DNA of 64,000 nucleotides from Mobula hypostoma (Eukaryota): NCBI RefSeq assembly GCF_963921235.1, contig NC_086097.1:32490001-32554000 (forward strand), written 5' to 3'. Of this stretch, positions 1,201-63,158 are shown in pieces. The translations under genes were made by a program, and so were the position numbers. The notes beneath the pieces were generated by a model, which searched no databases, was not told the DNA's origin, and saw only the letters and a program-made list of their open reading frames with translations. Within the stretch, counting starts at the first letter, position 1; every line of letters starts with the position of its first letter.

Positions 1201-1550
1201 CCCACATTAACCAGTTTACTGACAAGTCCTGCTACTTTAAGGATCTGTGGACATACAACTCAAAGCCTCTCTTTTCCTCCACCCCTTTGATATCCTCCCA
1301 TCTATTTTGTAGTACTTTCTCAGGCACATTATCTCGTGCCCCTGGCTTACATTCCATTCACCAGAGCTGCCCAGACCATCGACGTTACTGCAGTCTACAG
1401 TGTTCCTCTGCATGGTCAAGGCTTATATTCTGTAATACGGAAACTTTAGCATCCCCAGATCATTCTATTATATTACAAAAAGCAAGGTGCTGAGTACTGA
1501 ATTTCCACTAGTAACATTTTTCAGTCATAAAACACCTATGAAATATTACT

Positions 1551-3036
1551 CATCAAAGTTGCTGGTGGACGCAGCAGGCCAGGCATCATCTCTAGGAAGA
1601 GGTACAGTCGACGTTTCAGGCCGAGACCCTTCGTCAGGACTAACTGAAGGAAGAGTGAGTAAGGGATTTGAAAGTTGGAGGGGGAGGGGGAGATCCAAAA
1701 TGATAGGAGAAGACAGGAGGGAGAGGGATGGAGCCAAGAGCTGGACAGGTGATAGGCAAAAGGGGTATGAGAAGATCATGGGACAGGAGGTCTGGGAAGA
1801 AAGACAAGGGCGGGGGGAGACCCAGAGGATGGGCAAGGGGTATATTCAGAGGGACAGAGGGAGAAAAAGGAGAGTGAGAGAAAGAATGTGTGTATAAAAA
1901 TAAGTAACAGATGGGGTACGAGGGGGAGGTGGGGCATTAGCAGAAGTTAGAGAAGTCGATGTTCATGCCATCAGGTTGGAGGCTACCCAGACGGAATATA
2001 AGGTGTTGTTCCTCCAACCTGAGTGTGGCTTCATCTTTACAGTAGAGGAGGCCGTGGATAGACATGTCAGAATGGGAATGGGATGTGGAATTAAAATGTG
2101 TGGCCACTGGGAGATCCTGCTTTCTCTGGCAGACAGAGCGTAGGTGTTCGGCAAAGCGGTCTCCCAGTCTGCGTCGGGTCTCGCCAATATATAAAAGGCC
2201 ACATCGGGAGCACCGGACGCAGTATATCACCCCAGCCGACTCACAGGTGAAGTGTTGCCTCACCTGGAAGGATTGTTTGGGGCCCTGAATGGTGGTAAGG
2301 GAGGAAGTGTAAGGGCATGTGTAGCACTTGTTCCGCTTACACGGATAAGTGCCAGGAGGGAGATCAGTGGGGAGGGATCGGGGGGACGAATGGACAGGGG
2401 AGTTGCGTAGGGAGCGATCCCTGCGGAATGCAGAGAGAGTGGGGGAGGGAAAGATGTGCTTAGTGGTGGGATCCAGTTGGAGGTGGCGGAAGTTACGGAG
2501 AATAATATGTTAGACCCGGAGGCTGGTGGGGTGGTAGGTGAGGACCAGGGGAACCCTATTCCTAGTGGGGTGGCGGGAGGATGGAGTGAGAGCAGATGTA
2601 CGTGAAATGGGGGAGATACGTTTAAGAGCAGAGTTGATAGTGGAGGAAGGGAAGCCCCTTTCTTTAAAAAAGGCAGGCATAGCTAGGACCCATACGGGTG
2701 CCCATAGCTACACCTTTAGTTTGGAGGAAGTGGGAGGAGCCAAAGGAGAAATTATTAAGAGTAAGGACTAATTCCGCTAGACGGAGCAGAGTGGTGGTAG
2801 AGGGGAACTGATTAGGTCTGGAATCCAAAAAGAAGCGTAGAGCTTTGAGACCTTCCTGATGGGGGATGGAAGTATATAGGGACTGGACATCCATGGTGAA
2901 AATAAAGCGGTGGGGGCCAGGGAACTTAAAATCATCGAAAAGTTTAAGAGCGTGAGAAGTGTCATGAACATAGGTAGGAAGGGATTGAACAAGGGGGGAT
3001 AAAACAGTGTTGAGGTATGCAGAAACGAGTTCGGTG
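1551..3036 (-). mobile_element. Penelope-like element, inverted arm (RT N-part, internal deletion, GIY-YIG endonuclease, 3' end)
   Basis: RT motifs DVQSLYTSIP and GVAMGTRMGPSYA; GIY-YIG VIYCVRCSRCGLLYIGET...RFAEH...QPDGMNIDF. Reverse complement of the + arm. Confidence 0.92.
1606..1641 (-). ncRNA. Minimal hammerhead ribozyme, inverted copy
   Basis: Reverse complement of the 4490-4525 motif. Confidence 0.83.
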
Positions 3037-4623
3037 GGGTCCTAGCTATGCCTGCCTTTTTGTTGGCTTTGTGGAACAATCTATGTTCCGTGCCTATTCT
3101 GGTATCTGTCCCACACTTTTCCTTCGCTACATCGACGACTGCATTGGTGCTGCTTCCTGCACGAATGCAGAGCTTGTTGACTTTATTAACTTTGCCTCCA
3201 ACTTTCACCTTGCCCTCAAGTTTACCTGGTCCATTTCCGACACCTCCCTCCCCTTTCTAGATCTTTCTGTCTCTGTCTCTGGAGACAGCTTATCCACTGA
3301 TGTCTACTATAAGCCTACTGACACTCACAGCTATCTGGACTATTCCTCTTCTCACCCTGTCTCTTGTAAAAACGCCATCCCCTTCTCGCAATTCCTCCGT
3401 CTCCGCCGCATCTGCTCTCAGGATGAGGCTTTTCATTCCAGGACGAGGGAGATGTCTTCCTTTTTTAAAGAAAGGGGCTTCCCTTCCTCCACTATCAACT
3501 CTGCTCTCAAACGCATCCCCCCCTTATTTCACGCACATCTGCTCTCACTCCATCCTCCCGCCACCCCACTAGGAATAGGGTTGCCCTGGTCCTCACCTAC
3601 CACCCCACCAGCCTCCGGGTCCAACATATTATTCTCCGTAACTTCCACCACCTCCAACAGGATCTCACCACTAAGCACATCTTTCCCTCCCCCCCCCCTG
3701 CATTCCGCAGGGATTGCTCCCTACGCAACTCCCTTGTCCATTCGTCCCCCCCCCATCCCTCCCCACTGATCTCCCTCCTGGCACTTATCCGTGTAAGCGG
3801 AACAAGTGCTACACATGCCCTTACACTTCCTCCCTTACCACCATTCAGGGCCCCAAACAGTCCTTCCAGGTGAGGCAACACTTCACCTGTGAGTCGGCTG
3901 GGGTGATATACTGTGTCCGGTGCTCCCGATGTGGCCTTTTATATATTGGCGAGACCCGACACAGACTGGGAGACCGCTTTGCTGAACACCTACGCTCTGT
4001 CCGCCAGAGAAAGCAGGATCTCCCAGTGGCCACACATTTTAATTCCACATCCCATTCCCATTCTGACATGTCTATCCACGGCCTCCTCTACTGTAAAGAT
4101 GAAGCTACACTCAGGTTGGAGGAATAACACCTTATATTCCGTCTGGGTAGCCTCCAACCTGATGGAATGAACATCGACTTCTCTAACTTCTGCTAATGCC
4201 CCATCTCCCCCTTGTACCCCATCTGTTACTTATTTTTATACACACATTCTTTCTCTCACTCTCCTTTTTCTCCCTCTGTCCCTCTGAATATACCCCTTGC
4301 CCATCCTCTGGGTCTCCCCCCACCCCGTCTTTCTTCCCGGACCTCCTGTCCCATGATCCTCTCGTATCCCTTTTGCCTATCACCTGTCCAGCTCTTGGCT
4401 CTATCCCTCCCCCTCCTGTCTTCTCCTATCATTTTGGATCTCCCCTCCCCCTCCAACTTTCAAATCCCTTACTCACTCTTCCTTCAGTTAGTCCTGACGA
4501 AGGGTCTCGGCCTGAAACGTCGACTGCGCCTCTTCCTAGAGATGCTGCCTGGCCTGCTGCGTTCACCGGCAACTTTGATGTGTGTTGCTCGAATTTCCAG
4601 CATCTGCAGAATTCCTGTTGTTT
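3037..4623 (+). mobile_element. Penelope-like element, direct arm (RT with YIDD, GIY-YIG, 3' end with hammerhead)
   Basis: GPSYACLF...FLRYIDDC...LPFLDL...YYKPTD...IPFSQFLRLRRICS, followed by GIY-YIG. Frameshifts and a TAA at 4125-4127. Confidence 0.93.
4490..4525 (+). ncRNA. Minimal type-I hammerhead ribozyme (Penelope-associated)
   Basis: AGTC-CTGACGA-AGG(GTCTCGG)CCT-GAAAC-GTC^-GACT. Core CUGANGA/GAAA, helix I AGTC/GACT, helix II AGG/CCT, palindromic ACGT helix III. Predicted cleavage after C4521. Confidence 0.85.
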
Positions 4624-11480: not shown

Positions 11481-11728
11481 GATATAGAATGAGTAATTGG
11501 ACAGAGAAATTGTAAATGTAGTTCAACGTGGGAATGTGTGAGGTCATGTACTTTAGCAGCAGACTAAAGGGAGAGAAACTGCAAATCAGTGAAGCCCAGA
11601 GGCATTTTGGATCTACGTGTTCTATTGCATGAATCATAAAAGATTAGCGGGCAGCTCCATCACGCAGTTAGGAAGGCAAAAGACCTTTTTGCCTGTATTG
11701 CAAAGTGGCTGTAGTTTAAGAATAGCGA

Positions 11729-11940
11729 CACACATAAAAGTTGCTGGTGAACGCAGCAGGCCAAGCAGCATCTCTAGGAGGAGGTGCAGTCGACGTTTCA
11801 GGCCGAGACCTCCTGACGAAGGGTCTCGGCCTGAAATGTCGACTGCACCTCTTCCTAGAGATGCTGCCTGGCCTGCTGCGTTCACCAGCAACTTTTATGT
11901 GTGTTGCTTGAATTTCCAGCATCTGCAGAATTCCTGTTGT
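11729..11940. mobile_element. Fold-back Penelope mini-insertion with hammerhead
   Basis: Inverted plus direct copy of the PLE 3' end. GTTTAAGAATAGCGA is duplicated at 11714-11728 and 11939-11953. The core reads GAAAT instead of GAAAC. Confidence 0.88.
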
Positions 11941-12699
11941 TTAAGAATAGCGAGTTTATGTTCCAGTTGTAAAGGTGTTGGTGAGGTCAACTCCACACAT
12001 TTTGCCTGACTTGCTCAGCTCTTCTAGCATTTTCTATGTGTGTGCTTCAAGATTTCCAGCATCTGCATTATCTTTTGTGTTTATAATTTTTAAAAATTAT
12101 TTTTTTGAAATCCTTCGGTCACTACATTTGAACTTCTTGTAGCCTATATCCCTCTGAGGTATCCACATTCTTTCAATTGTAGCCTCTTGGCTTTTCCATA
12201 TTTAACCATTCCACAATCAGTCACGGATTCTTCAGTTGCCAGGGCCTACACTCCAGATTTCCCCCTCTGAACCCCTTGAAATGTAGATTTGAACTATCTC
12301 TAGTCGACTATCTGATAGCTTACAGAACTCATGAGTGTCACAGCATAGAATAAGGCCCTTCAGCCCACACCTCCTAATAAGAACCTAGCCACGGTAATCC
12401 CATTTTATTCTCTCCACATTCACTCTCCTCTCCCCAGATGCTCCCAGTCATTTACATCAGTCTCATGTGGATGGAGATTTGTCTGATACCACCAGGTACT
12501 TTGCCCTTTTTGTGGCATTAATTGAACTGGATAATTCAAGCAGTGGAAGGTGAATTTAGTAATTATTTAAACAGAGGCTTGGTGCATAAATGTGGCAGTG
12601 TGTTTGAAGTACAGTTTGAAATGCCAGACATACAGGCTGTGAGCTTGGGAAGCGCTTCTGCCTTCACTGGCCCATTTTGAAAGCCATTCCCAGCGAAGG

Positions 12700-14990: not shown

Positions 14991-15255
14991 GGGATGATAG
15001 TTACAAAACTGGAGGTGGGGTTGTTGCAGAGGTGAGGGTGGGGGAATGTGGAATTAATGGAGAAAATCCACCCTCTTTTAAAAGAATTTAATAAAAGAGC
15101 AAATGGAGGATCAAACAGAATCAACTGAGTTTTGAGCAAAAGAACTTGTATTTGATAAATCTACGATTTTGAGGCTATAGTTAGAAGGGAGGATAGGAGT
15201 ATTCAGTGTAGAGGTAGGGCTTCAGGGTTTTCAAAATACATTTGAAAAGGTCACA

Positions 15256-15475
15256 CAAAAAATGCTGGAGGAACTCTGAGATCAGGCAGCACCTATGGAA
15301 GGAAATGGACAATCAATGTTTTGAGCCAAGACCCTTCATCTGGACTGGTGAAGGGTCTCAGCCCAAAATGGCATCTGTTTATTTCCCTCCCTGGATTCTG
15401 CACAACTTGCTGAGCTCCTCCAGTACTGTGTGTGTTGCTCAAGATATCCAACTTCTGGAAAATTTTTGTATCTCT
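15256..15475. mobile_element. Older fold-back Penelope mini-element (similar relics near 16258-16396, 21426-21588, 34680-34780, 35730-35880, 46730-46815, 61970-62100)
   Basis: aaatgctggaggaactc...gacccttcatc|gaagggtctc...tgctgagctcctccag; approximate flanking duplication tttgaaaaggtcaca/tttaaaaagatcaca. Confidence 0.7.
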
Positions 15476-18482: not shown

Positions 18483-19990
18483 AAACTCCTTCAGGGAAAA
18501 TCCTACCTGATGAACCTCTTGGAATTCTTTGAGGAGATTACACGTAGGATAGATAAAGGGGATGCAGTGGATGTTGTATATTCAGACTTTCAGAAGGCCT
18601 TTGACAAGGGCCACACGAGGCTGCTTACCAAGTTAAGAGCCCATGATATTACAGGAAAGTTACTAACATGGTTAGAGCATTGGCTGATTGGTAGGAGACA
18701 GCGAGTGGGAATAAAAGGATCCTTTTCTGGTTGGCTAGTGGTGTTCCACAGGGGTCGGTGTTGGGACCACTTCTTCTTATGCTGTATATAAATAATTTAG
18801 ATGATGGAATAGATGGCTTTGTTGCCAGGTTTGTAGATGATATGAAGATTGGTGGAGGGGCAGGCAGTGTTGAGAAAACAAGTAGGATGCAGAAAGAACA
18901 CACATAAAAGTTGCTGGTGAACGAGGCAGGCCAGGCAGCATCTCTAGGAAGAGGTGCAGTTGACGTTTCAGGCCGAGACCCGACGTCCTGACGAAGGGTC
19001 TCGGCCTGAAACGTCGACTGCACCTCTTCCTAGAGATGCTGCCTGGCCTGCTGCGTTCACCAGCAACTTTTATGTGTGTTGCTTGAATTTCCAGCATCTG
19101 CAGAATTCCTGTTGTTTGCAGAAGGACTTGGACAGATTTGGAGAATGGGCAAGAAAGGGGCAAATGAAATACAATGTTTGAAAATGCATTGTCATGCACT
19201 TTGGTAGTAGAAATAAATGTGTGGACTATTTTCTAAATGGGGATAATATCCAGGAATCTGAGATGCAGAGGGACTTTGGAGTCCTTGTGCAGAACACCCT
19301 GAAGGTTAACTTGCAGGTTAAGTTGGTAGTGAGGAAGGCAAATGCCATGTTAGCATTCATTTCAAGAGGTCTAAAATATAAGAGCAAGGATGTATTGCTG
19401 AGACTTTATAAGGCACTGGTGAGGCCTCAGCTTGAATATTGTGAACAGTTTTGGGCCCCTCATCTTAGAAAAGGTATGCTGGCATTGGAGAGGGTCCAGA
19501 GGAGGTTCACAAGGATGATTCTAGGAATGAAAGGGTTATCATATGAGGAAAGTTTGATAGCTCTGGGTCTGTACATGCTGGAATTCAGAAGGATGAGGGG
19601 GATCTCATTGAAACCTTTTGAATGTTGAAAGGCCTAGACAGAGTAGATGTGGAAAGGATGTTTCCCATGGTGGGAGAGTCTAGGACAAGAGGGCACAGCC
19701 TCAGGATAGAGGGGCGCCCTTTCAGAACAGAGATGTGGAGAAATTTCTTTAGCTAAAGGGTGGTGAATTTGTGGAATTTGTTGCCACATGCAGCTGTGGA
19801 GGGCAGATCATTGGGTGTATTTAAGGCAGAGACTGATAGGTTCTTGATTGGACATGGCATCATTACGGGGGGAAGGCCGGGAACTGGGGTTGAGGAGGAG
19901 ATAGAAAAAAAAAGGATCAGCCATGATTGAATGGTGGAGCACACTCGATGGGCCAAATGGCCTAATTCTGCTCCTATGTCTTATAGTCTA
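18483..19990 (+). mobile_element. CR1 LINE 3' portion
   Basis: DFQKAFDK, LYKALVRPQLEYCEQFWAP; tail ggcctaattctgctcctatgtcttat. Confidence 0.9.
18898..19116. mobile_element. Fold-back Penelope mini-insertion inside CR1 RT
   Basis: Same architecture. Duplication TGCAGAAAGA/TGCAGAAGGA; intact hammerhead core at 18985-19018. Confidence 0.88.
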
Positions 19991-21159: not shown

Positions 21160-22477
21160 CTGCAAGTAGTTAAAAATGTATGTGACTTCTGCAGGAACAG
21201 TCAGAAATTGTTGTAAACACCAACAGATTATACTAGAAGCACTGCCTCTTTCAATATACTGATTTTCATGTGAGTGTACACTGCACAATTTACAAAGTTC
21301 CAAAAAACTTAGAGTAGAGTCAGTTTATAAAATTATAAGAGGCATTGAAAGAGTAGACAGCTACTGGTATCTTTTCCCCAGGGTCAAAATGTCTAGGATG
21401 TTCAGAAGCATAGAGAGGATGGACAAGACACACAAAATGCTGGGAGAACTTAGCAGCCCAGGCAGCTGTATGGAAAAGAGTACAGTCGACACTCCGGGCC
21501 GAAACACTCCAGCAGGACTGAGTTCCTCCAGCACTTTGTGTGTGTGTTGCTTGGATTTCCAACATCTGCAGATTTTCTCTTGTTTGTGAGAGAGTGGACA
21601 GCTAATGCCTTTTTTGCCAGGGTGGGAAATGGCTAAAATGAGGGGCATAAGTTTAAGGTGTTGGGAGGAAAATATAGGAGATAGGTCAGAAGTAGTTTTT
21701 TTTTTACACAGAAGCACTGGTTGCAAGGGTGGTGGTAGAAGCATATACATTAGGGACATTTAAGAGACTCTTAGATATGCACATGGATGAAAGTAAAATG
21801 GAAGTCTATGCGGGAGAGAAGTGTTAGATTGAGTTATTTAAAAGGTCGGAGCAACATTGTGGGCTGAAAGGCCTGTTCCTGTGCTGTGCTGTACTGTTCT
21901 CTGTTCTATAATGAACTGCGAAGATAGCAGGAATAAACTACAGTCAGTGCGGAATGGAAATAACATCTCCTTCTCACTGACATTTAATACTGGCACTCCT
22001 CGAGGATGCTTGCTTAGCCACTGGTCTACTCTCTCTACACCCATGATTGTATGGCTAGGCACAGCTCGAGCACCATCCACATTAATGTCTGTTGATGACG
22101 CAATTATTGCTGGCAGAATCTCAGATGGTGACAAGGAGACATACAGGAGTGAGATAGATCAGTTGGTTGAGTGGTGGTGCAACAACAGCTTTGCACTCAA
22201 TGTCAGTAAGACCAAGGAATTGATTGTGGACTTCAGGAAGGGTAAACTGTGGGAATAGACACTAGTCCTCATTAAAGGATCAGCAGTGGAAAGGGTGAAC
22301 AGTTTCAGATGTTGGGTGTTAACATTTGTGAAGGTCTATCCTGGGCCCCACCTATTGATGCAGTTACAAAGAAGGAGTTTAGGGAGATTCGTTATGTCAC
22401 CAAAGACTCTGCAAATGTACCATGGCCAGCATTCTAACAGATGCATCACCATCCGATACAGAGTTTATCAGGATAAG

Positions 22478-35157: not shown

Positions 35158-37550
35158 CTGTGAAAAGAGAGAGAACAATAACAATTCCCACGTAGTAAGC
35201 ACCGAATCCAACTGTTTCCAGGAGTGAGGGAAGTAATCTATGAGGATGAATTTAGTGGAGATAGACAAAAACTTGTAATGGCATAGAAGAAGGCTACCAA
35301 TCCATGCAGGCGCAAAGGTCTGAAATACCATCAGTCTGAATCTCTTTAATTCCCCCTACCTTATCCTCTGATGCACACATGCTCGTCAATTCTCTTTGAT
35401 TCTTTTCTGCCACTAACTTACACTAAGTGATAACTTGCAGTTATAGAATCATAAAGCTCTACAGCATAGAAATAGGCCCTTCGGCCCATCTAGTTCACAT
35501 CAAACTATTATTCTGCTTAGTCCCATTGACCCGCGCCAGGACCATAAGCCTCCATATCCTTACCCAAACCTCTCAAATACTGAACCCACAACCACTACTT
35601 CTGCTGGAAGCTCGTTCCACACTCACATCCTGTCAGTGAAGAAGTACACCTTCAAGTTCCCCTTAAACATTTCTCCTTTCATCCTTAATCTCTGACCTCT
35701 GGTTCTAGTGTCACCAAACCTCAGTGGAAAAACAAACACGAGAAAATCTGCAGATGGTGGAGATCCAAGGAACACACTGGAAGAACTGGAAGAAAATGCT
35801 GGAAGAACTCAGCAGGCCAGGCGGCATCTATGGAAAAGAGTCAACAGTTGATGTTTTAGGCTGAGACCCTCATCAGCAGTCTCATTTCCAATATTAGCCT
35901 TTAATTTCCTGTCTTTTGCTTCCCTGACTTCTTAAAGAGTGGAGTGTCATTTGTGATTTTTCAGTCCTCTGGCACCGTTCTAGGAACTAGTGATTCTTGA
36001 AAGATCATGACTGGTGCCTCCATAATATCTTCAGCCATTCTCCAGAAAGCTATCTCACAGGTGAAGTGGAGATTCTGGACTAGACTGGAATCAGTGAGGG
36101 ATGCTCAACAACTGAGGCAGGGTTTGAATGCCATAACCTCCTACAAAGCTAAATCTTGCAACATAGGGGACAGGAGGGCTTCACATTCGGATAAGTTCAA
36201 TGCCTTCTGTGCATGCTTTGACCACCAGAACAGGGAGGAACCATCCTGCAAACCTCATGTATCCTGATGATCCTTTGGTCTCAGTATCTGAAGATGATGT
36301 GCGGGCTGCTTTCAAGAGAGTGAATCCAAAGAAAGCTCCCGGTTCGGACAGAGTACCTGGCTGAGTATCGAAGCCCTCTGCTGACCAACTGGCTGGTGTA
36401 TTCACAGGTATCTTCAACTTCTCACTCTGGCAGTGTGTGGTACCCACCTGCTTCAAGCAGGCTTCAATCGTACCGGTACCCAAGAAGAGTAAGGTAACCT
36501 GTCTCAATGACTATCGCCCAGTGGCACTTATATCTACAGTGATGAAGTGTTTTGAGAGGCTGGTGCTGAAGCATATCAGCTCCTGTCTGAGAGGTGACTT
36601 GGATCCGCTCCAATTCATCTGCTGAAGCAACAGGTCTACAGCAGATGCCATCTCATTGGCTCTTCACACAACCCTGGAACATCTGGACAGCAAAGATGCA
36701 TAAGAGAGCAAAGAGATCAGGATGCACTTTATCGATTACAGCGCAGCATTTAGTACCATCATCCCCTTAAAACTAATCAGCAAACTCCAAGAAATGGGCC
36801 TCAATACCTCTTGTACAATTGGATCCTGGATCTCCTCACTGTAGACCCCATTCAGTTTGGACTGGCAAAAACATCTCCTCCACAATCACAAAGGAGCACT
36901 ATGGGGATGAATGTGTAGCCCCCTGCTCTACTCACCTCTGACTGTGTGGCTAAATACAGCTCCAACACTATATACAAGTTTGTTGATGAAACCACTGTTG
37001 TGGGCTGTATCAAAGGTGGTGATGAATCAGCATATAGGAGGGAGACTGTAAATTTGACTGAGTGGAGTAATAACAACAATCTCTCACTCAATATCAATAA
37101 GACCAAGGAACTGATTGTGGACTTCAGGAGAGGGAAACCAGAGGTCCATGAGCCAGTCCTCATTGGAGGATCAGAGGTGGAGAGGGTCAGTAACTTTAAA
37201 TTCCTGGGTGTCACCATCTCAGAGGACTTGACCTGGATCCATCATATAAATATACATAATTGCAAAGTAAGCGTGACAGTGCCTCTACTTCCTCAGCACA
37301 ACATCAAAAATCTTGGCAAACTTCTACAGATAGATCAGCCATGATGAAATGGTGGGGCAGACAATGGGCCAAATGGCCTAATTCTGCTCCCGTATCTTAT
37401 GGTCGTATGTGTGGTGGAAAGTGTGCTGACTGGCTGCATTATGGCCTGGTATAGGAACAACAATGTCTTTGAGTGGAAAATCCGACAAAAGGTAGTGGAT
37501 TCAGCCCAATACATCACGGGTAAAGCCCTCCCAACCATCGAGCACATCTA

Positions 37551-46145: not shown

Positions 46146-46814
46146 AAATGTGTGTTTCTTGCATCAATGAACGCAGTTCAAGAATGTGTTGGGGGCAGCT
46201 CACAAGTGTTGCCAGCTTCCGGCGCCAACATAGCATGCCTACAACTCACTAACCCTAACCCATATGTGTTTAGAATGTGGAGGAAACCAGTGCATTCAGA
46301 GGAAACTCATGTAGTCAAGGGGAGAATGTACAAACTCGCTACAGACCACACTGGCAAATGAACCCCGATCACTGGCGTTCCAAAGTATTAAGCTAACCAC
46401 TATACTACTCTGTCACGATGGTCTGCCAGCTGACTCATTCATTAGTAGAGTCTGAGCCGGGGATTCACAATGCAAATGGTGTGTGTGGTCAGAGGGAGGG
46501 GAGGGTCCAGAGTATAACTGGAACATGACTGGGAGTGTGGCTTGAAGCATGCTTGGGGTCCAGAATGCTGGGGTCAGTGATGTGGCCGTTTATTTTATGT
46601 TCCACTTACACTCACATAGTTCACTGGAAAATTCATTATAGTGCAGCATAACAGGTAAAAGAAATCTCAGATAAATGTATAAATGTTTACTTGGGCTGGT
46701 CTGGGCCACAACTGGATCACAACCCTAACAACACACACAAAATGCTGGAGGAACTCAGCAGGCCAGGAAGAATTTATGGAAAAAAGTAAACAGTCGATGT
46801 TTTGGGCTGTTCAT

Positions 46815-52100: not shown

Positions 52101-52132
52101 TCTGGATTGGATCTTGCCAAGTGCCTAATTAT

Positions 52133-52425
52133 GCACAGTCCAATGTCTCTTCGGGAACCGTGGTGCACAAGAAGTACTGACAGCCCCACTCTTCTTTTAA
52201 ATTTTCCCTCTGCACAGTCCGATGTCTCCTCGGGAACTGTGGCACGCAAAATGTACCAACTGTCCCCACTTGCTTCTTTTAAACTTTCTTCCTCTACACA
52301 ATCTGATGTCTCCTCTGGAAATGTGGCGCACAAAAAGAAGCGATAGCCCCGCTCGCTTCTTTTAAACTCTTTCCTTCCATGCAATCCGATGTCCCCTTGG
52401 GGACTGTAGTGCGCAAACTGTGCCC
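52133..52425. repeat. ~80-85-bp tandem repeat, ~3.5 units
   Basis: Units start gcacagtccaatgtc (52133), gcacagtccgatgtc (52212), acacaatctgatgtc (52296) and gcaatccgatgtc (52381). Confidence 0.85.
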
Positions 52426-52949: not shown

Positions 52950-53397
52950 ATATTCCGTCTAGGTAGCCTCCAACATGATAACATAAACATCAATTTCTTA
53001 AAACTTCTGGTAATTGCCCCCCCACCTTCACCATTCCCGTTTCCCTTATCTCCTTACCTGCCCATCACCTCCCTCTGGTGCTCCTCTCCCTTCCCTTACA
53101 ACCCTCTCCTATCAGATTCTTTCTTCTCCAGTCCTGTATCTCTTTCACCTATCAGCTTCCCTGCCCTTTACTTCACCCCTCCCCCTCCCAGTTTTACCTA
53201 TCACCTAGTATTTCTTCCCCCCTCCCCCCACCTTCTTGCTCTAATTTCTCATCTTTTTTCTCCAGTCCTGATGAAGGATCTCAGCCTGAAACGTCGACTG
53301 TACTCTTTTCCGTAGATGCTGCCTGGCCTGCTGAGTTCCTCCAGCATTTTGTGTGTGTTGCTTGGATTTCCAGTATCTGCAGATTTTTTCATCTTTG
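52950..53397 (+). mobile_element. Older Penelope 3' end with intact hammerhead (53263-53300)
   Basis: GIY-YIG tail remnant (ttccgtctaggtagcctccaac), pyrimidine-rich UTR, then CAGTC-CTGATGA-AGG..CCT-GAAAC-GTC-GACTG. Confidence 0.8.
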
Positions 53398-53469: not shown

Positions 53470-54062
53470 GTGATGTTTGTAGTGATTACTGAGTTTGGAG
53501 TGAAAAATTATTGTTTGTTACTGTGATTTGGAGTGAATGATTAGTAATGGTTTACTGATAAGTGAAGGTTCATTATTACATTAACTAACAGTACCCTTAG
53601 TATGTGAATGAAGTTTGATTGTTACTGTCCTGACGAAGGGTCTCGGCCTGAAACGTCGACTGCACCTCTTCCTAGAGATGCTGCCTGGCCTGCTGCGTTC
53701 ACCAGCAACTTTTATGTGTGTTGCTTGAATTTCCAGCATCTGCAGAATTCCTGTTGTTTGATTGTTACTTGTTGACTAGGGCACACTGATGTGTTTGTAG
53801 TGAATGATTATTGATGAGTGAAGGTTTAACGTTACTGGCATAGACTGGCAGGTTTTGAGTGAAGGTTAATTGTTGGTTACTCACATTGACAGGCAGTTCC
53901 CCGGTTGTCTGAGTGATAGTTAATTGTTACTCATTGACTAGCACTATCCAGAGGTGTTTAAGTGAAGGTTTATTGTTGGCTGCTCATTGACTGGCAGTAC
54001 CCCACGGTGTTAAGTGAAGGTTTACTTTTGGTCACTCATTCACTAGCGGTTCCCCGCGGGGT
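53470..54062. repeat. Degenerate ~50-bp minisatellite next to NOXRED1 exon 1
   Basis: Repeated (a/g)agtgaaggtt..ttgtt..ttactcattgact..ca units. Confidence 0.75.
53627..53755 (+). mobile_element. 129-bp Penelope mini-insertion starting at the hammerhead
   Basis: Begins GTCCTGACGA. TSD GTTTGATTGTTACT at 53613-53626 and 53756-53769. Confidence 0.88.
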
Positions 54063-56518: not shown

Positions 56519-59500
56519 AGGACCGCCCTGTCTGCAAATGGAGTAGCAGTATTTTTGTGCTGCTCTTAGTTTCCTTTCTCTACCCCCAGTTTAAGCTTTG
56601 AATTTAAAATTTTTACTTGCTGATTCTTGATGGGATCAATATGTCTATGTCTACAAGAAATGGGAAGAATTTACCTGAACCTAGTGATAAAGGTAATGGG
56701 AAAGGAAAGGTGCAAAAGGAAAGATCTGATGAAATGCCATCGTGGGCTGAAGATATCGTTCGAATCACTGAATCGAATTAAGGATCAGAATGGATCAATT
56801 AAAGACCAACTGGAAAAGAATAGTAATGAAATGAAGTCATTTCTGGGAAAACTTAAAGACCTGGAAACTCAAGTTATTTCACACAAAGAGGAATTGAAGA
56901 TAACTAAGCAAAAGTTGTCTGAAGTTACAACTCGTTTGGAAAGATATCAAAATGAGATTATAGACCTGGAAACTAAGTCTCGACGAAGGAATATACGAAT
57001 TGTTGGGTCGCAAGAAGGAGCTGAAGATGGAGATCTAACGGCTTACTTTGGTAAGCTTTTCTACACTTTATTTCTATAGTTGCCTGCTATAGAAAGGGCA
57101 CACAGGGCGTTTATCTTGAAATTGAAGGATTCTAGTAAACCAAGATCTGTTCTGGTTTGCTTTCATCACTTTAAAATTAAAGATCAAATAATACGACAGG
57201 CAAGAAAACAGAAAGTTTTTAGATTTATAGAATCTGAGCTCCGCTTTTACGAAGATTATCCAAGAGAGATAATGGAACAAAGAGCAAAATTTGCCCTGGT
57301 AATGAAACAAGCATATGATAAAAAAAACTTCTTCCGTATTTGAGGTACCTGACAAGAATTAAAATTTTTCCTGCTAATTCTCCTCCTCATACTTTTTTTG
57401 ATCCAAAAGCTGCACTGGACTTTGTTCAGACTATACCCGCCGCTGTTGAATGATCTATCTGAAAGTCTGTTTGGCTATCTGTATATTATTTGCATTTTGG
57501 AAAGAAGATTTATGAAGATCATTTGTATATTTCATTGAGAGACTAATTAAAGAAGACAAGGAGAGTTATTCATCATTGCATATTGTTGGTTTTCCTTTGG
57601 AAAGACTTATGGCTTAAGTATCTCTGTCTAAATGATCTCTGAAATTCTACGACTGAGAGAAAAAGATAAGGGGATTTGTTCCTTTAATTTAATACTTGGT
57701 TTGTTTCTTTTTTTTAATTAGCTAATTGGTAGTTTTTTCCTACTAATAGGGTTTTTGATATATTTTTCCTGTTTTATTATAACATTCTATAATTGAATTT
57801 AAAGCTTTTTTAAGGAATTAATATTAAACTTGAAGATGGTGCTGGTTTTTCTCTCTAAGAGATAATATTATTTTGGTTCTTTCTTGTTTATTAGTCGATG
57901 GAATGTAAATACCTTTTTTTGCTGAGACTTTTTTTCACAAGGTTACTCTACTTTTTTACTAACTGGGGGGAGGGAAAGAAAACACAGTATGATAATACTC
58001 CTTTTAAAGTTGCAGACTCTTTTAGATATCTAGGTATTATGATTACTTAAAAATATAAGGATCTTTATAAAGCCAATTTTGTTCCCTTAGTAGACTCTAT
58101 GAAGTATTTATTTAGTAGATGGAGTCCACTTACATTTTCACTTGTTGGTCATATTCATATAGTTAAAATGATGATTTTACCGAAATGTTTATATTTATTT
58201 CAGAATATTCCTGTTTTTTGACTAGGAAGTTTTTTGATCGGATTGATTCTATTATTTTATCTTTTATTTGGAATAATAAAAGACCAAGAATTAGTAAATG
58301 TCATTTACAAAAATTGAAAAAGGATGGAGGTCTTGCTTTGCCTAATCCAAGAATGTATTATTGGGCTGTTAATGTGCGATACATGTCTTTTTGGTTATAC
58401 TGGGTTGATAAGAGTGATCAGCCAATTTGGGTAGACCTGGAACTGAAAGTTGTAAAACAGTTTTATTTAACCTCATTATTGGGAGCTCCTGTACCTATGC
58501 AATTAGTTAAAGTTGTTAATTTAAACCTATACCCTGTGATTTTTCTCCCTCTGTCCCTCTGAATATACCTCTTGCCCATCCTCTGGGTCACCCCCCCCCT
58601 TGTCTTTCTTCCCGGACCTCCTGTCCCATGATCCTCTCGTATCCCCTTTTGCCTATCACCTGTCCAGCTCTTGGCTCCATCCCTCCCCCTCCTGTCTTCT
58701 CCTATCATTTTGGATCTCCCCCTCCCCCTCCAGCTTTCAAATCCCTTACTCACTCTTCCTTCAGTTAGTTCTGACGAAGGGTCTCGGCCTGAAACGTCGA
58801 CTGCACCTCTTCCTATAGATGCTGCTTGGCCTGCTGCGTTCACCAGCAACTTTGATGTATGTTCCCTGTGATTAAGTATTCTTTACAAATTTGGCTCCAA
58901 TTCCACAATTTTTTTTAATCTTAAAAAATTTAAACTTTGTAGTTTAATTTACCGAAATTACTTTTTTAAGCCTTCTTTGAGTGATCCAATTTTTTAACTT
59001 TGGAAAAATAAAGGTATTGATTCTTTTTTGGATTTATTTAAAGAAGATAGATTGATGTCTTTTGAAGAATTAATTGATAAATATTCCCTTTCATACTCAC
59101 ACTTGCTGCAATACCTTCAAGTTAGACATTTTTTACAAAAATATTAAAGTAATTTTCCTTACATATTGGAGGCTGACCTGTTAAATACTATTATGAGTAT
59201 GAATCCTTTGATTAAGGGTTCTATTGGAAGAATTTATAACATTATTACAATGGGATAAGCGTCCTTTATCTAAGATTAAACAGGATTGGGAAAAGGAACT
59301 TAATTTGACTTTTATGACGGAGGATTGGATGCGGATATTGAAGTTGGTTAACTCTTCTTCAATTTGTGCTAGCATTCATTGATTCAATTTAAAATTGTAC
59401 ATCGTTATCATTTGACAAAGGAGAGACTTTCTAAAATCTTTTCTAATGTTGATAGTCATTGTGATAGATGCAAAACTGAGATAGCTACAGTGACACATAT

Positions 59501-60695: not shown

Positions 60696-63158
60696 TTGAC
60701 AGTAAATTTACTTTGAACTTTGAAATACCTAGGTACAGTAAAAAAAACCTTTTCTAATTGCTCTTTCTTATAAAAATTGTGTACACGTTTTTCTTGTGAA
60801 TGCTGCTTATCTGATGCTCTGTGCTTGTGAAGCTGCTGCAGGTAAGTTTTTCTTTGCACCTATGCATACACTGGCTTGTGCACCTGACTATAAACTCAAC
60901 TTTGATAATACTGTTATAGTGGATTTATGGATAAATTACCCATTTCTGTGCCTATGAGACTTTGGCTCTGCGTGTTGAAATCCAAGGCCTGAAGGAAGAG
61001 AAGATGTCATACAGTGTCTTGTAACTCTCATCCATTAGAAGCAAGCTTTCACTTTATAAAGCAGGATAATGTACACACAAGATGTGTATTCTTTATTTCT
61101 TCCCTTTCTGAAGTTCACTGTCTATGGTAGATCCATTCACAACCCTCTCTGTGACACATCAACAACATTACTTAGAAATATGTACACCGAGAGCAACCAA
61201 AAAAATATTAATCAATTCACAAAAATTAGGCTTTAAAACTGCTGTACAAAAAAAAAATTAAAACTTTATACAAGGCAATGTTTTTAAAAAAGTAATGATC
61301 TGATTCAGTGATGTTGAGGAGAAACAATTTTATGTGGAAGCTTACAGAGCCAAATTCAGGGAATTTAGTTGAGAATTTGATTGTCACTTTATAGATTTTA
61401 AGATGTATTTTCTGGTGCAGGGGAAATCAGGGATTTGATCCTGCCCTGCCAACACAGCTCCAATCTCAGGTGTAAGGATGCTAGATATCAGTGAAGATAC
61501 TCTTACATGCCAGGTGTCTGCTCACAGATACAGGAAGAGAAAGGGGAGGGGACACAAGAGTTTAAGGGAGGAAGACCGAGAGAAAGGAAAAAGGTGGTGA
61601 GAGGAACAGAAATGAACAGAAGGAATTCTCCCATTTTCCTGTGCCAAAGGAAGCCATTTAGCCCATGATGTGTATGCTGGTTCTCAGATCAATTCCATCA
61701 ATAGCCTTCTCCCACTTCTTTCACTTATCCATTCTAAATTCCATTAATATCCCTCAGATAATCGTTTCAGCCACCAAACAGTAATTTAGAAGGTCAATTA
61801 TTGAGCACTACAGCACAGAAATTGGCCCTTCAGCCAGTCTGGTCTGTGCCAAACTGTTATTCTTCATCTTCATGATGTGGGAATAAACTGGAATACCCAG
61901 GGGAAACACATGTGATCATAGACAGAAATTACAAACTCCATACACACAGCGTGCACACACACACACACACACACATAACAATGGAGGAACTCAGCAAGTC
62001 AGGCAGTATCTATGGGGGAAGGGGTGAATAAACAGTCCATGTTTCAGGCTGAGACCCTTCATCAGGACTGGAAAGGAAGGGTGAAGAAGCCAGAAAAAGG
62101 TGGTGGGGGGAGCTGCGAGCCATCTGCTTTCTACCTGCAGTTATACGACATACTTAAAAGCATGGAGAACACGAATAATCAGTCATGGAGCGGGAGAGAG
62201 TGAGGGAGAGGGGGACGCAAAACAAACCTGATTTGTTAGCTTTCCTCTCTCTAAAGATGCTATTTAACCCACTGGGTACCTTAGAACTTTGTTTTTAATC
62301 ATGTGAGAGAGAATGAGCAGTATAGATAGAGTTAACGCTAGCAGGCTTTTTCCTACTGAGGTTGGGTGTGAGGTCAGAGGTTAAGGGTTAAAGGTGAAAT
62401 ATTAAGGAGAACCTAAGGGGGAACTTCTTCACTCAGACGGTGTTGAGAGTGTGAAGCAAGTTGCCAGTGGAAGTGGTGGATGCAGGCTCGATTGCAGAAA
62501 TTAGATGGATGGGAAGGGTATGGTCCAAGTGCAGGTCGATGGGACTAGACAGAATAACAGTTTGCATGAAATACATGGGCCAAAGGGCCTGTTTCTCTAA
62601 AACAATAAATGTCACATGTCAGAGATAAAAGAAAACTGATTCTAATTTAATGTTCTGAGGCAATGAGTTTTAAACTGGGCATTGATGGCACAGCGAGCAG
62701 AACTGCTGCTTTGCAGCACCAATGATACCAGTTCAATCCTAACATCTGGTGCTGTGTGGAGTTTGCACTTTCTCCCTGTAACTGCATGGGATTCCCCAAG
62801 GTGCTCTGGCTTCTTTTCCTCAGGTCAATGGGTTAACTGCAGCAGTATGTGGGGTAGAATCTGAAAGGTAGTAGGGGAATGTGGGGACAATTAAATGGGT
62901 AAAGTGTATATTGGTGTTCAAGGGTTGGCACAGATTTGGTGAGCTGAAGGATCGGTTCTTGTGTTGTATCTTTAGGAAAAGCTATAAAATGTAGAATACT
63001 AGAACACTGAGCCTTTGATCAGAATTGAGCAAGTAAGAAACAAAGCACAGTGCAGAAAGGAGTGAAGTGTCGGACTGGTACAGTGTTGTGCTGTGGAGAG
63101 GGCAGGAAGAGTATGTTGGAAAACTGAGGTTGGTAATGGAAAAATTCTTGTTGTTGGG

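Follow-up and report, generated by a model that had tools for sequence, protein, structure and literature searches.

What fixes the 5′ end of a short, hammerhead-bearing insertion that recurs within 64,000 nt of the Mobula hypostoma genome? An initial annotation of this whole stretch, which we call the window, had pointed to three nearly identical arms flanked by target-site duplications, with starts (11811, 18985 and 53627) within 1 nt of one another. The arms were proposed to be a self-propagating, non-autonomous or retrozyme-like unit of Penelope origin, with its 5′ end set at the ribozyme. We compared these arms with one another, with other copies in the window and with copies sampled elsewhere in the genome. 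Element coordinates count from the G of GTCCTGA as +1 (window 53627), in a frame taken from two full-length copies, L081 and L082.

Three short insertions and their relatives in the window

The insertions and their parts are as follows.

53627..53759 (+): lone short Penelope insertion, element +1 to +133, with hammerhead motif, leader and tail (sequence comparison)
53613..53626 and 53756-53769: left and right copies of the 14-nt target-site duplication of the lone unit, 4 nt of which are common with the tail end
53627..53660 (+): minimal type-I hammerhead motif of the lone unit, predicted from sequence, with the architecture described in PMC4209133
53627-53629, 53630-53636, 53637-53639 and 53647-53649: helix I 5′ strand, CUGACGA, and the two strands of helix II
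53650-53653 and 53658-53660: GAAA and helix I 3′ strand; the palindromic ACGT also belongs to the motif
53657|53658: predicted hammerhead cut, element +31|+32, 31 nt inside the unit
53723..53759 (+): tail of about 37 nt, lying between two 3′-end peaks (+95 to +100 and +132 to +135; histogram of 310 arms)
11811..11942 (+): tailed direct arm of an inverted pair, +2 to +133 (sequence comparison)
11724..11810 (-): untailed inverted partner of the 11811 arm, +13 to +99 (sequence comparison)
18985..19117 (+): tailed direct arm of an inverted pair, +1 to +133 (sequence comparison)
18897..18987 (-): untailed inverted partner of the 18985 arm, +6 to +96 (sequence comparison)
1548..4623: long inverted insertion of the same Penelope family, with an untailed minus arm from 1548
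3041-4623 (+): tailed plus arm of that insertion, with broken RT and endonuclease coding sequence
58540..58863 (+): untailed, 5′-truncated copy of 324 nt with a 10-nt target duplication
53136..53386 (+): copy of an older, related family, whose hammerhead is immediately preceded by a pyrimidine tract and CAG

The near-identity of the three arms and their common ends were confirmed. The 53627 unit is 100% identical to 18985-19117 and 99.2% identical to 11811-11942, from which it differs by one base; the three start at +1, +1 and +2, respectively, and all end at +133. Target duplications measure 14 nt at the lone unit, 15 nt around the pair 11724-11942 and 7 nt around the pair 18897-19117. Since four bases are common to the tail end and the duplication, the right end of the lone unit can be placed at 53759, or at 53755 if these bases are assigned to the duplication, and unit lengths of 133 and 129 nt are the same observation. 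The 11811 and 18985 arms are halves of head-to-head inverted pairs, leaving 53627 as the only lone unit. Two further young insertions (1548-4623 and 58540-58863) reach far upstream; a target duplication was sought around the first of these and was not found.

The minimal type-I hammerhead with its palindromic (ACGT) helix III was borne out as a motif, with a CUGANGA and GAAA core, helices I and II, and an NUH triplet. A search of the window with Rfam at the gathering threshold gave no match, and identification was by motif. In the unit, helices I and II each have 3 bp; in long copies, helix I reaches 5 bp if wobble pairs are counted. The predicted minimum-energy RNA folds are alternatives to the hammerhead.

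The insert is the leader and 3′ end of a Penelope element

By sequence, the 133-base insert is the leader and 3′ end of a very abundant Neptune-type Penelope element and not a separate mobile element. The Penelope origin proposed earlier was thereby upheld: in both of the far-reaching insertions, the unit's sequence runs upstream into RT and endonuclease coding DNA. The full-length copies define a 3,510-nt monomer with a single 1,016-aa ORF, and L082 is a partial tandem with a period of 3,510 nt. The ATG of the ORF lies at +170, 36 nt past the tail, so -1 to +169 reads as a 5′ UTR. Because the unit is continuous with coding DNA and is followed by an ORF behind its tail, it closes one copy at the 3′ end and serves as leader to the copy that follows.

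The ORF matched RVT_1 (E=6e-5) and, at its C-terminus, GIY-YIG (E=0.001), both short of the Pfam gathering cut-offs, and a PDB sequence search with it returned no match. In the L082 protein, a CX4CxxC linker between RT and endonuclease matches the Neptune motif, CX2-5CxxC (PMC8557442). The assignment to Neptune follows this linker motif, and Nematis likewise has a linker motif (PMC8557442). Traits of EN+ Penelope elements are present throughout, namely an ORF with RT and C-terminal GIY-YIG, a partial-tandem pLTR with a hammerhead, inverted copies and an optional tail. Genome-wide, a 20-base anchor (+67 to +86) has 94,123 exact matches, and a 58-base stretch of the unit has 3,888. Two loci 30 kb apart (C1:42751637-42754770 and C1:42781482-42784615) are 100% identical over 3,134 nt, which reflects either duplication in the very recent past or an artificial doubling in the assembly.

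5′ ends cluster at the front edge of the hammerhead

Arms were sampled from contig C1 with a 3′-side anchor, the first 100 on the contig and then 210 chosen via arbitrary flank letters. All 310 are from C1, the design admits only starts up to +67, and some insertions contribute both of their arms. The finding itself (L161) and the RT-selected loci L061-L084 were left out of the histograms, which dropped 1 of 311 primary arms, as were 30 loci from a search pattern requiring +2. By type, 179 arms are inverted, 103 simple and 13 tandem-type, and 15 are cut by the locus edge.

The 5′ breakpoints are not uniform. Starts at -2, -1, +1 and +2 number 8, 13, 14 and 11, a total of 46/310 (95% interval 11-19%), so that a four-base span at the hammerhead's front edge takes roughly one in seven copy ends, in agreement with the strong 5′-end bias suggested by the initial annotation. 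Between -50 and +67, 46 of 169 starts fall in this hotspot (binomial p=4e-28), a rate of about 0.056 per base at risk vs 0.001-0.002 in the body (>30-fold). Starts upstream of -15 account for 162/310 arms. Extrapolated from this one contig, 11-19% of the 94,123 exact-anchor arms, or about 14,000, would end at one four-base position.

To this we added a second sample enriched for starts at -46 to +9, in which 98 new arms were pooled with 89 earlier ones (187 arms, -40 to +9). The pooled starts (-3: 1, -2: 12, -1: 16, +1: 20, +2: 18, +3: 8, +4: 11, +6: 11, +7: 10) have an abrupt 5′ edge, from 1 at -3 to 12 at -2, and a 3′ shoulder extending to +7. No second peak was found among 153 arms starting upstream of -45, where any 4-nt window holds at most 4 starts. 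Minor clusters of about equal size lie at -28/-29 and at -15/-16, the latter adjoining a branch-point-like A and comprising 4/27 starts in the first sample (p=0.04, post hoc) and 6/24 in the new one. The 3′ ends of the 310 arms are bimodal, which gives the two peaks listed above. In older families, imprecisely, some 7-11 of 93 arms begin near -1 to +5. Apparent starts at -10 in inverted pairs proved to be an artefact of hairpin self-homology.

These data agree with the earlier remark that self-cleavage fails to explain the boundary. If hammerhead cleavage set the 5′ end, starts should lie at +32, which holds 3/310; the main peak is 31 nt from the cut, and cleavage cannot account for the peak at -2 to +2. 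There is a slight rise at +31 to +33 (7/56 starts between +15 and +67, p=0.04), and one lone copy, C1:1756943, starts at exactly +32 with its duplication adjoining. However, +32 junctions in inverted pairs can stem from helix I microhomology, and the Anolis element PAc inserts from uncut RNA, with no RNA reads ending at its cut site (PMC11167929). We regard self-cleavage as a most implausible source of the boundary.

Short copies are probably made repeatedly from autonomous elements

Were the short copies a non-autonomous, SINE- or retrozyme-like master unit (-1 to +133), transcribed and mobilized in trans, a private haplotype and a shared junction would be expected. Hotspot arms instead carry 16 haplotypes, 10 of them common to long copies, and 38/44 hotspot arms have a haplotype also found among 132 long arms, with frequencies that vary between subfamilies. 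This sharing suggests that hotspot copies were made repeatedly from autonomous subfamilies, with neither a retrozyme nor a single master behind them. Junctions are likewise diverse (144 distinct among 150 short arms), and lone tailed hotspot units make up just 7/310 arms. Tails occur about equally on hotspot arms (21/46) and on arms overall (133/310). No tandem array of the unit was found among the 13 tandem-type arms, and the window copies are single or inverted. The definition of a non-LTR retrozyme, a tandem with at least two complete hammerheads, therefore does not describe them (Li, Clavereau and Pollet 2026, bioRxiv 10.64898/2026.07.22.740005). A unit ending at the tail would also lack the RNA downstream of the priming site that PAc needs (PMC11167929).

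Two observations go against the by-product reading. The haplotype carried by all three window copies is present in just 9/216 sampled arms and 1/44 hotspot arms, which may reflect a local burst from one source RNA. In addition, L395:1481-1677 and L396:1481-1677 share an identical inverted junction at unrelated sites while differing in internal variants, through either recurrent joining or re-mobilization of an inverted mini-copy. A mobile unit could also produce head-to-tail joins of the tail to -2 and -15, seen where L081:2895 and 2908 are joined to 6284 and 6275; these come from contigs of runs guessed as RNA, in which tandem genomic copies and circles look alike. Overall, the self-propagating unit of the initial annotation is largely refuted, and we consider it very unlikely. 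Contigs of four sequencing runs have loose ends at +1 to -3, where RNA ends and genomic copies look alike, and no canonical splice joint was found among the matches listed; these contigs were given no weight as evidence.

Paired arms are coupled in tail status and length

The inverted insertions follow a one-tail rule. Among inverted arms with a partner reaching the 3′ end, 146/148 have a partner of opposite tail status. The untailed arm extends further upstream in 78 pairs and the tailed arm in 57; since the untailed arm is often the longer, a simple fold-back of the tailed cDNA does not predict the pairs. Arm lengths are coupled as well: 19/20 partners of hotspot arms begin no further upstream than -2, and a long partner accompanies just 2/67 of the arms that start downstream of +2 but 39/47 of the long arms. 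One cDNA from each of two priming sites would give both one tail per pair and coupled lengths.

Two insertions bear on this directly. L441 (4798-5213, reverse strand; C1 at about 112454.7 kb) consists of two inverted arms and has a 14-nt duplication; both arms cross the same exact GT-AG junction, from a donor at +405 to an acceptor at -3. As an exact pattern, this junction occurs genome-wide in these two arms only. Judged by its sequence, L441 is a retrocopy of a spliced Penelope RNA, either ORF-skipping or a back-spliced circle, and the presence of this rare junction in both arms suggests that one RNA gave rise to two cDNAs. Since the tailed arm of L441 is the longer one, a single cDNA that folded back would also account for this insertion. 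At L262:2698-2847, three successive passes (+1 to +34, -1 to +34 and -1 to +79) lie inside one target duplication and end at -1, -1 and +1; as repeats they are three 35-nt partial repeats only. The passes suggest repeated run-off with template jumping. Together, the one-tail rule, the coupled lengths, L441 and L262 show a hard template limit as opposed to a leaky pause, and both cDNAs of a pair would appear to come from one molecule.

What limits the template

The bases at the hotspot belong to several overlapping features, most clearly seen in a long copy.

4470..4491 (+): upstream context in a long copy, with a branch-point-like heptamer (4470-4476), a pyrimidine tract, CAG (4485-4487) and TAG (4489-4491)

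In element coordinates the heptamer occupies -21 to -15, CAG -6 to -4 and TAG -2 to +1. A(-1), at window 4490, lies within TTAGT, which we take to be initiator-like. A conserved splice acceptor is thus, by sequence, on the same bases as the putative transcription start. This overlap divides the earlier statement that the 5′ end is set at the ribozyme: the ends do cluster at the helix I edge, but an initiator-like and splice-acceptor motif overlaps helix I there, so the ribozyme need not be what sets the boundary.

We hypothesize that the short leader copies arise when internally primed RT runs off an RNA that ends at about A(-1), probably a transcription start, and we put the chances of this reading at about even. 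What favors an RNA end at A(-1) is that the edge is sharp, that run-off recurs and that no peak lies upstream. Against a start at A(-1), homology to Drosophila virilis Penelope would place the start upstream, since in that element transcription begins 121 nt before helix I, followed by a 46-nt exon and a 75-nt intron (PMC4209133, PMC2377424). We rejected the idea that the hotspot arises from spliced exon-1 read-through: exon-1 sequence is attached at none of 28 non-inverted junctions, and a -617 donor junction has 0 matches genome-wide. Templated A(-1) and T(-2) beside the duplications, together with the absence of exon 1, show that templates are not normally spliced mRNAs.

The same bases could act as a barrier, with RT on unspliced nuclear RNA halted by 3′-splice-site factors (U2AF or the early spliceosome) or by a splicing intermediate. 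We view this as possible but unlikely. It is kept alive by the missing cap G (there is no G excess 5′ of starts, with 7/38 before A(-1) and 8/30 before G(+1) against a background of 22%), by the D. virilis intron, which ends at helix I (PMC4209133), and by the weak -15/-16 cluster, since stops at a branch point would yield a minor class at -15. For that cluster, a branch-point stop fits better than an RNA end. The heptamer reads TACTCAC, TACTAGC or TACTAAC in 78, 28 and 20 of 143 long copies, a pyrimidine tract and YAG stand directly 5′ of helix I in 27/30 long older-family copies despite divergent upstream sequences, and the adjacent CAG was used in the spliced retrocopy L441. A block on one RNA would couple both arms too. 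However, pairing in helix I constrains CAG too, so that its conservation is confounded, and the barrier leaves the similar-sized -28/-29 cluster unaccounted for. The exon-1 and -617 results count against it as well, and older families without the upstream CAG seem to share starts at -1 to +2 (small n).

A third candidate is an RNA hairpin predicted at -11 to +14 (window 4480-4504), which would pause RT or be cut in its loop by a nuclease. The predicted loop falls exactly on +1 to +4, the fold sequesters CUGACGA and has a lower predicted energy than the hammerhead (-12.4 vs -5.4 kcal/mol), and the shoulder of starts extends to +7. If RT paused at the stem, however, starts should pile up at its 3′ foot (+14), where the rise is only mild, and coupling of partner arms as tight as that observed is not what a leaky pause would produce. 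The hairpin is also mostly weak in the older families whose arms seem to start at this hotspot too (median about -4.6 vs -8.3 kcal/mol), and folding z-scores for the region are unremarkable. We therefore think it improbable that the hairpin sets the boundary. In the predicted folds, RNAs that begin at -1 no longer form the hairpin, which may serve to switch the ribozyme on and off.

A run-off model and its relation to known elements

Returning to run-off at A(-1), we propose that nicked target strands would prime reverse transcription at about +96, +133 or both. The 3′-end peaks at these positions are observed, and priming there is suggested by in vitro work on PAc of the anole. Each inverted pair would represent two cDNAs from one RNA, one per priming site, a step that draws on the pair statistics and one direct case. 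On a template beginning at A(-1), cDNA could reach at most about 134 nt; the limit itself is hard in the data, and its identity as an RNA end is our interpretation. The cDNA would then be joined to the other target end or to its partner cDNA with a loss of 0-3 nt, or RT would jump back and run off again. Longer copies would derive from read-through RNAs that take in an upstream partial copy. The hammerhead would be carried uncut, with cleavage at +31|+32 adding little or nothing to the boundary.

We also speculate, with some reserve, that twin priming acts on a single unspliced RNA, one cDNA per side of the tail, so that the short copies are a fossil map of that RNA and splicing-factor occupancy sets whether a mini-copy or a long copy results; this we consider doubtful. 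If it were true, tens of thousands of short copies would record a hard edge at the initiator, acceptor and helix I, minor branch-point stops, and rare copies of spliced or circular RNA. Whether an insertion became a dead mini-copy or a long one would depend on acceptor occupancy, and this dependence would account for the retention of introns by Penelope elements.

Much of this has precedent. Already known are 5′ truncation, inverted arms, one-sided tails, internal priming, minimal hammerheads and an intron ending at helix I. EN+ Neptune-type elements have 5′-truncated and inverted copies and an optional tail of 30-40 bp, and the Mobula element resembles them in its RT and C-terminal GIY-YIG ORF, CX4CxxC linker, partial tandems, head-to-head inverted arms, tail at one end, target duplications and hammerhead in the terminal repeat. 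A fixed 5′-end hotspot at helix I, a near-absolute one-tail-per-pair rule and arm-length coupling go beyond what is described in the available text of PMC8557442 and PMC3846280. In PAc, a Poseidon element of Anolis, two RT start sites bracket the tail, and both strands are primed from uncut RNA in vitro, which the two 3′-end peaks here match (PMC11167929). PAc belongs to another clade, and the leader here is non-coding, with its ATG at +170. A genomic analysis of 5′ ends was not found in the available text of that paper.

The minimal type-I core and palindromic helix III are those of metazoan Penelope-like hammerheads (PMC4209133). As in D. virilis Penelope, a 3′ splice site lies at the 5′ end of helix I, whereas the hotspot is at the helix I edge and the Drosophila start is 121 nt upstream of it; the available text of PMC4209133 and PMC2377424 was not found to link the hammerhead to insertion boundaries. 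Non-LTR retrozymes, which form tandem arrays with at least two hammerheads and circular RNAs, are likewise short, non-coding, hammerhead-bearing and derived from Penelope terminal repeats, and dispersed monomers are mentioned (bioRxiv 10.64898/2026.07.22.740005). Unlike retrozymes, the copies here are single or inverted and end at RT priming sites, not at cut sites. Dispersed hammerhead-bearing monomers in vertebrate genomes can thus be run-off by-products and not retrozymes.

The hotspot, the one-tail rule and the coupled arm lengths were not found in the literature searched. Within that literature they are new, and they constitute a real, quantifiable feature of Penelope by-products. They give precise predictions for CAGE and in vitro assays on partial tandems, inverted repeats, one-sided tails, introns and the role of the hammerhead. 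Run-off at the front end of the leader would give a testable handle on how Penelope copies itself.

Other repeats in the window

Older, diverged Penelope families with the same leader occur at 15251-15400, 21424-21586, 35733-35870, 46729-46802, 53136-53386 and 61987-62084, and at least two of these copies resemble short inverted pairs. Four degenerate direct repeats of about 80 nt each (family D17) lie at 52101-52417.
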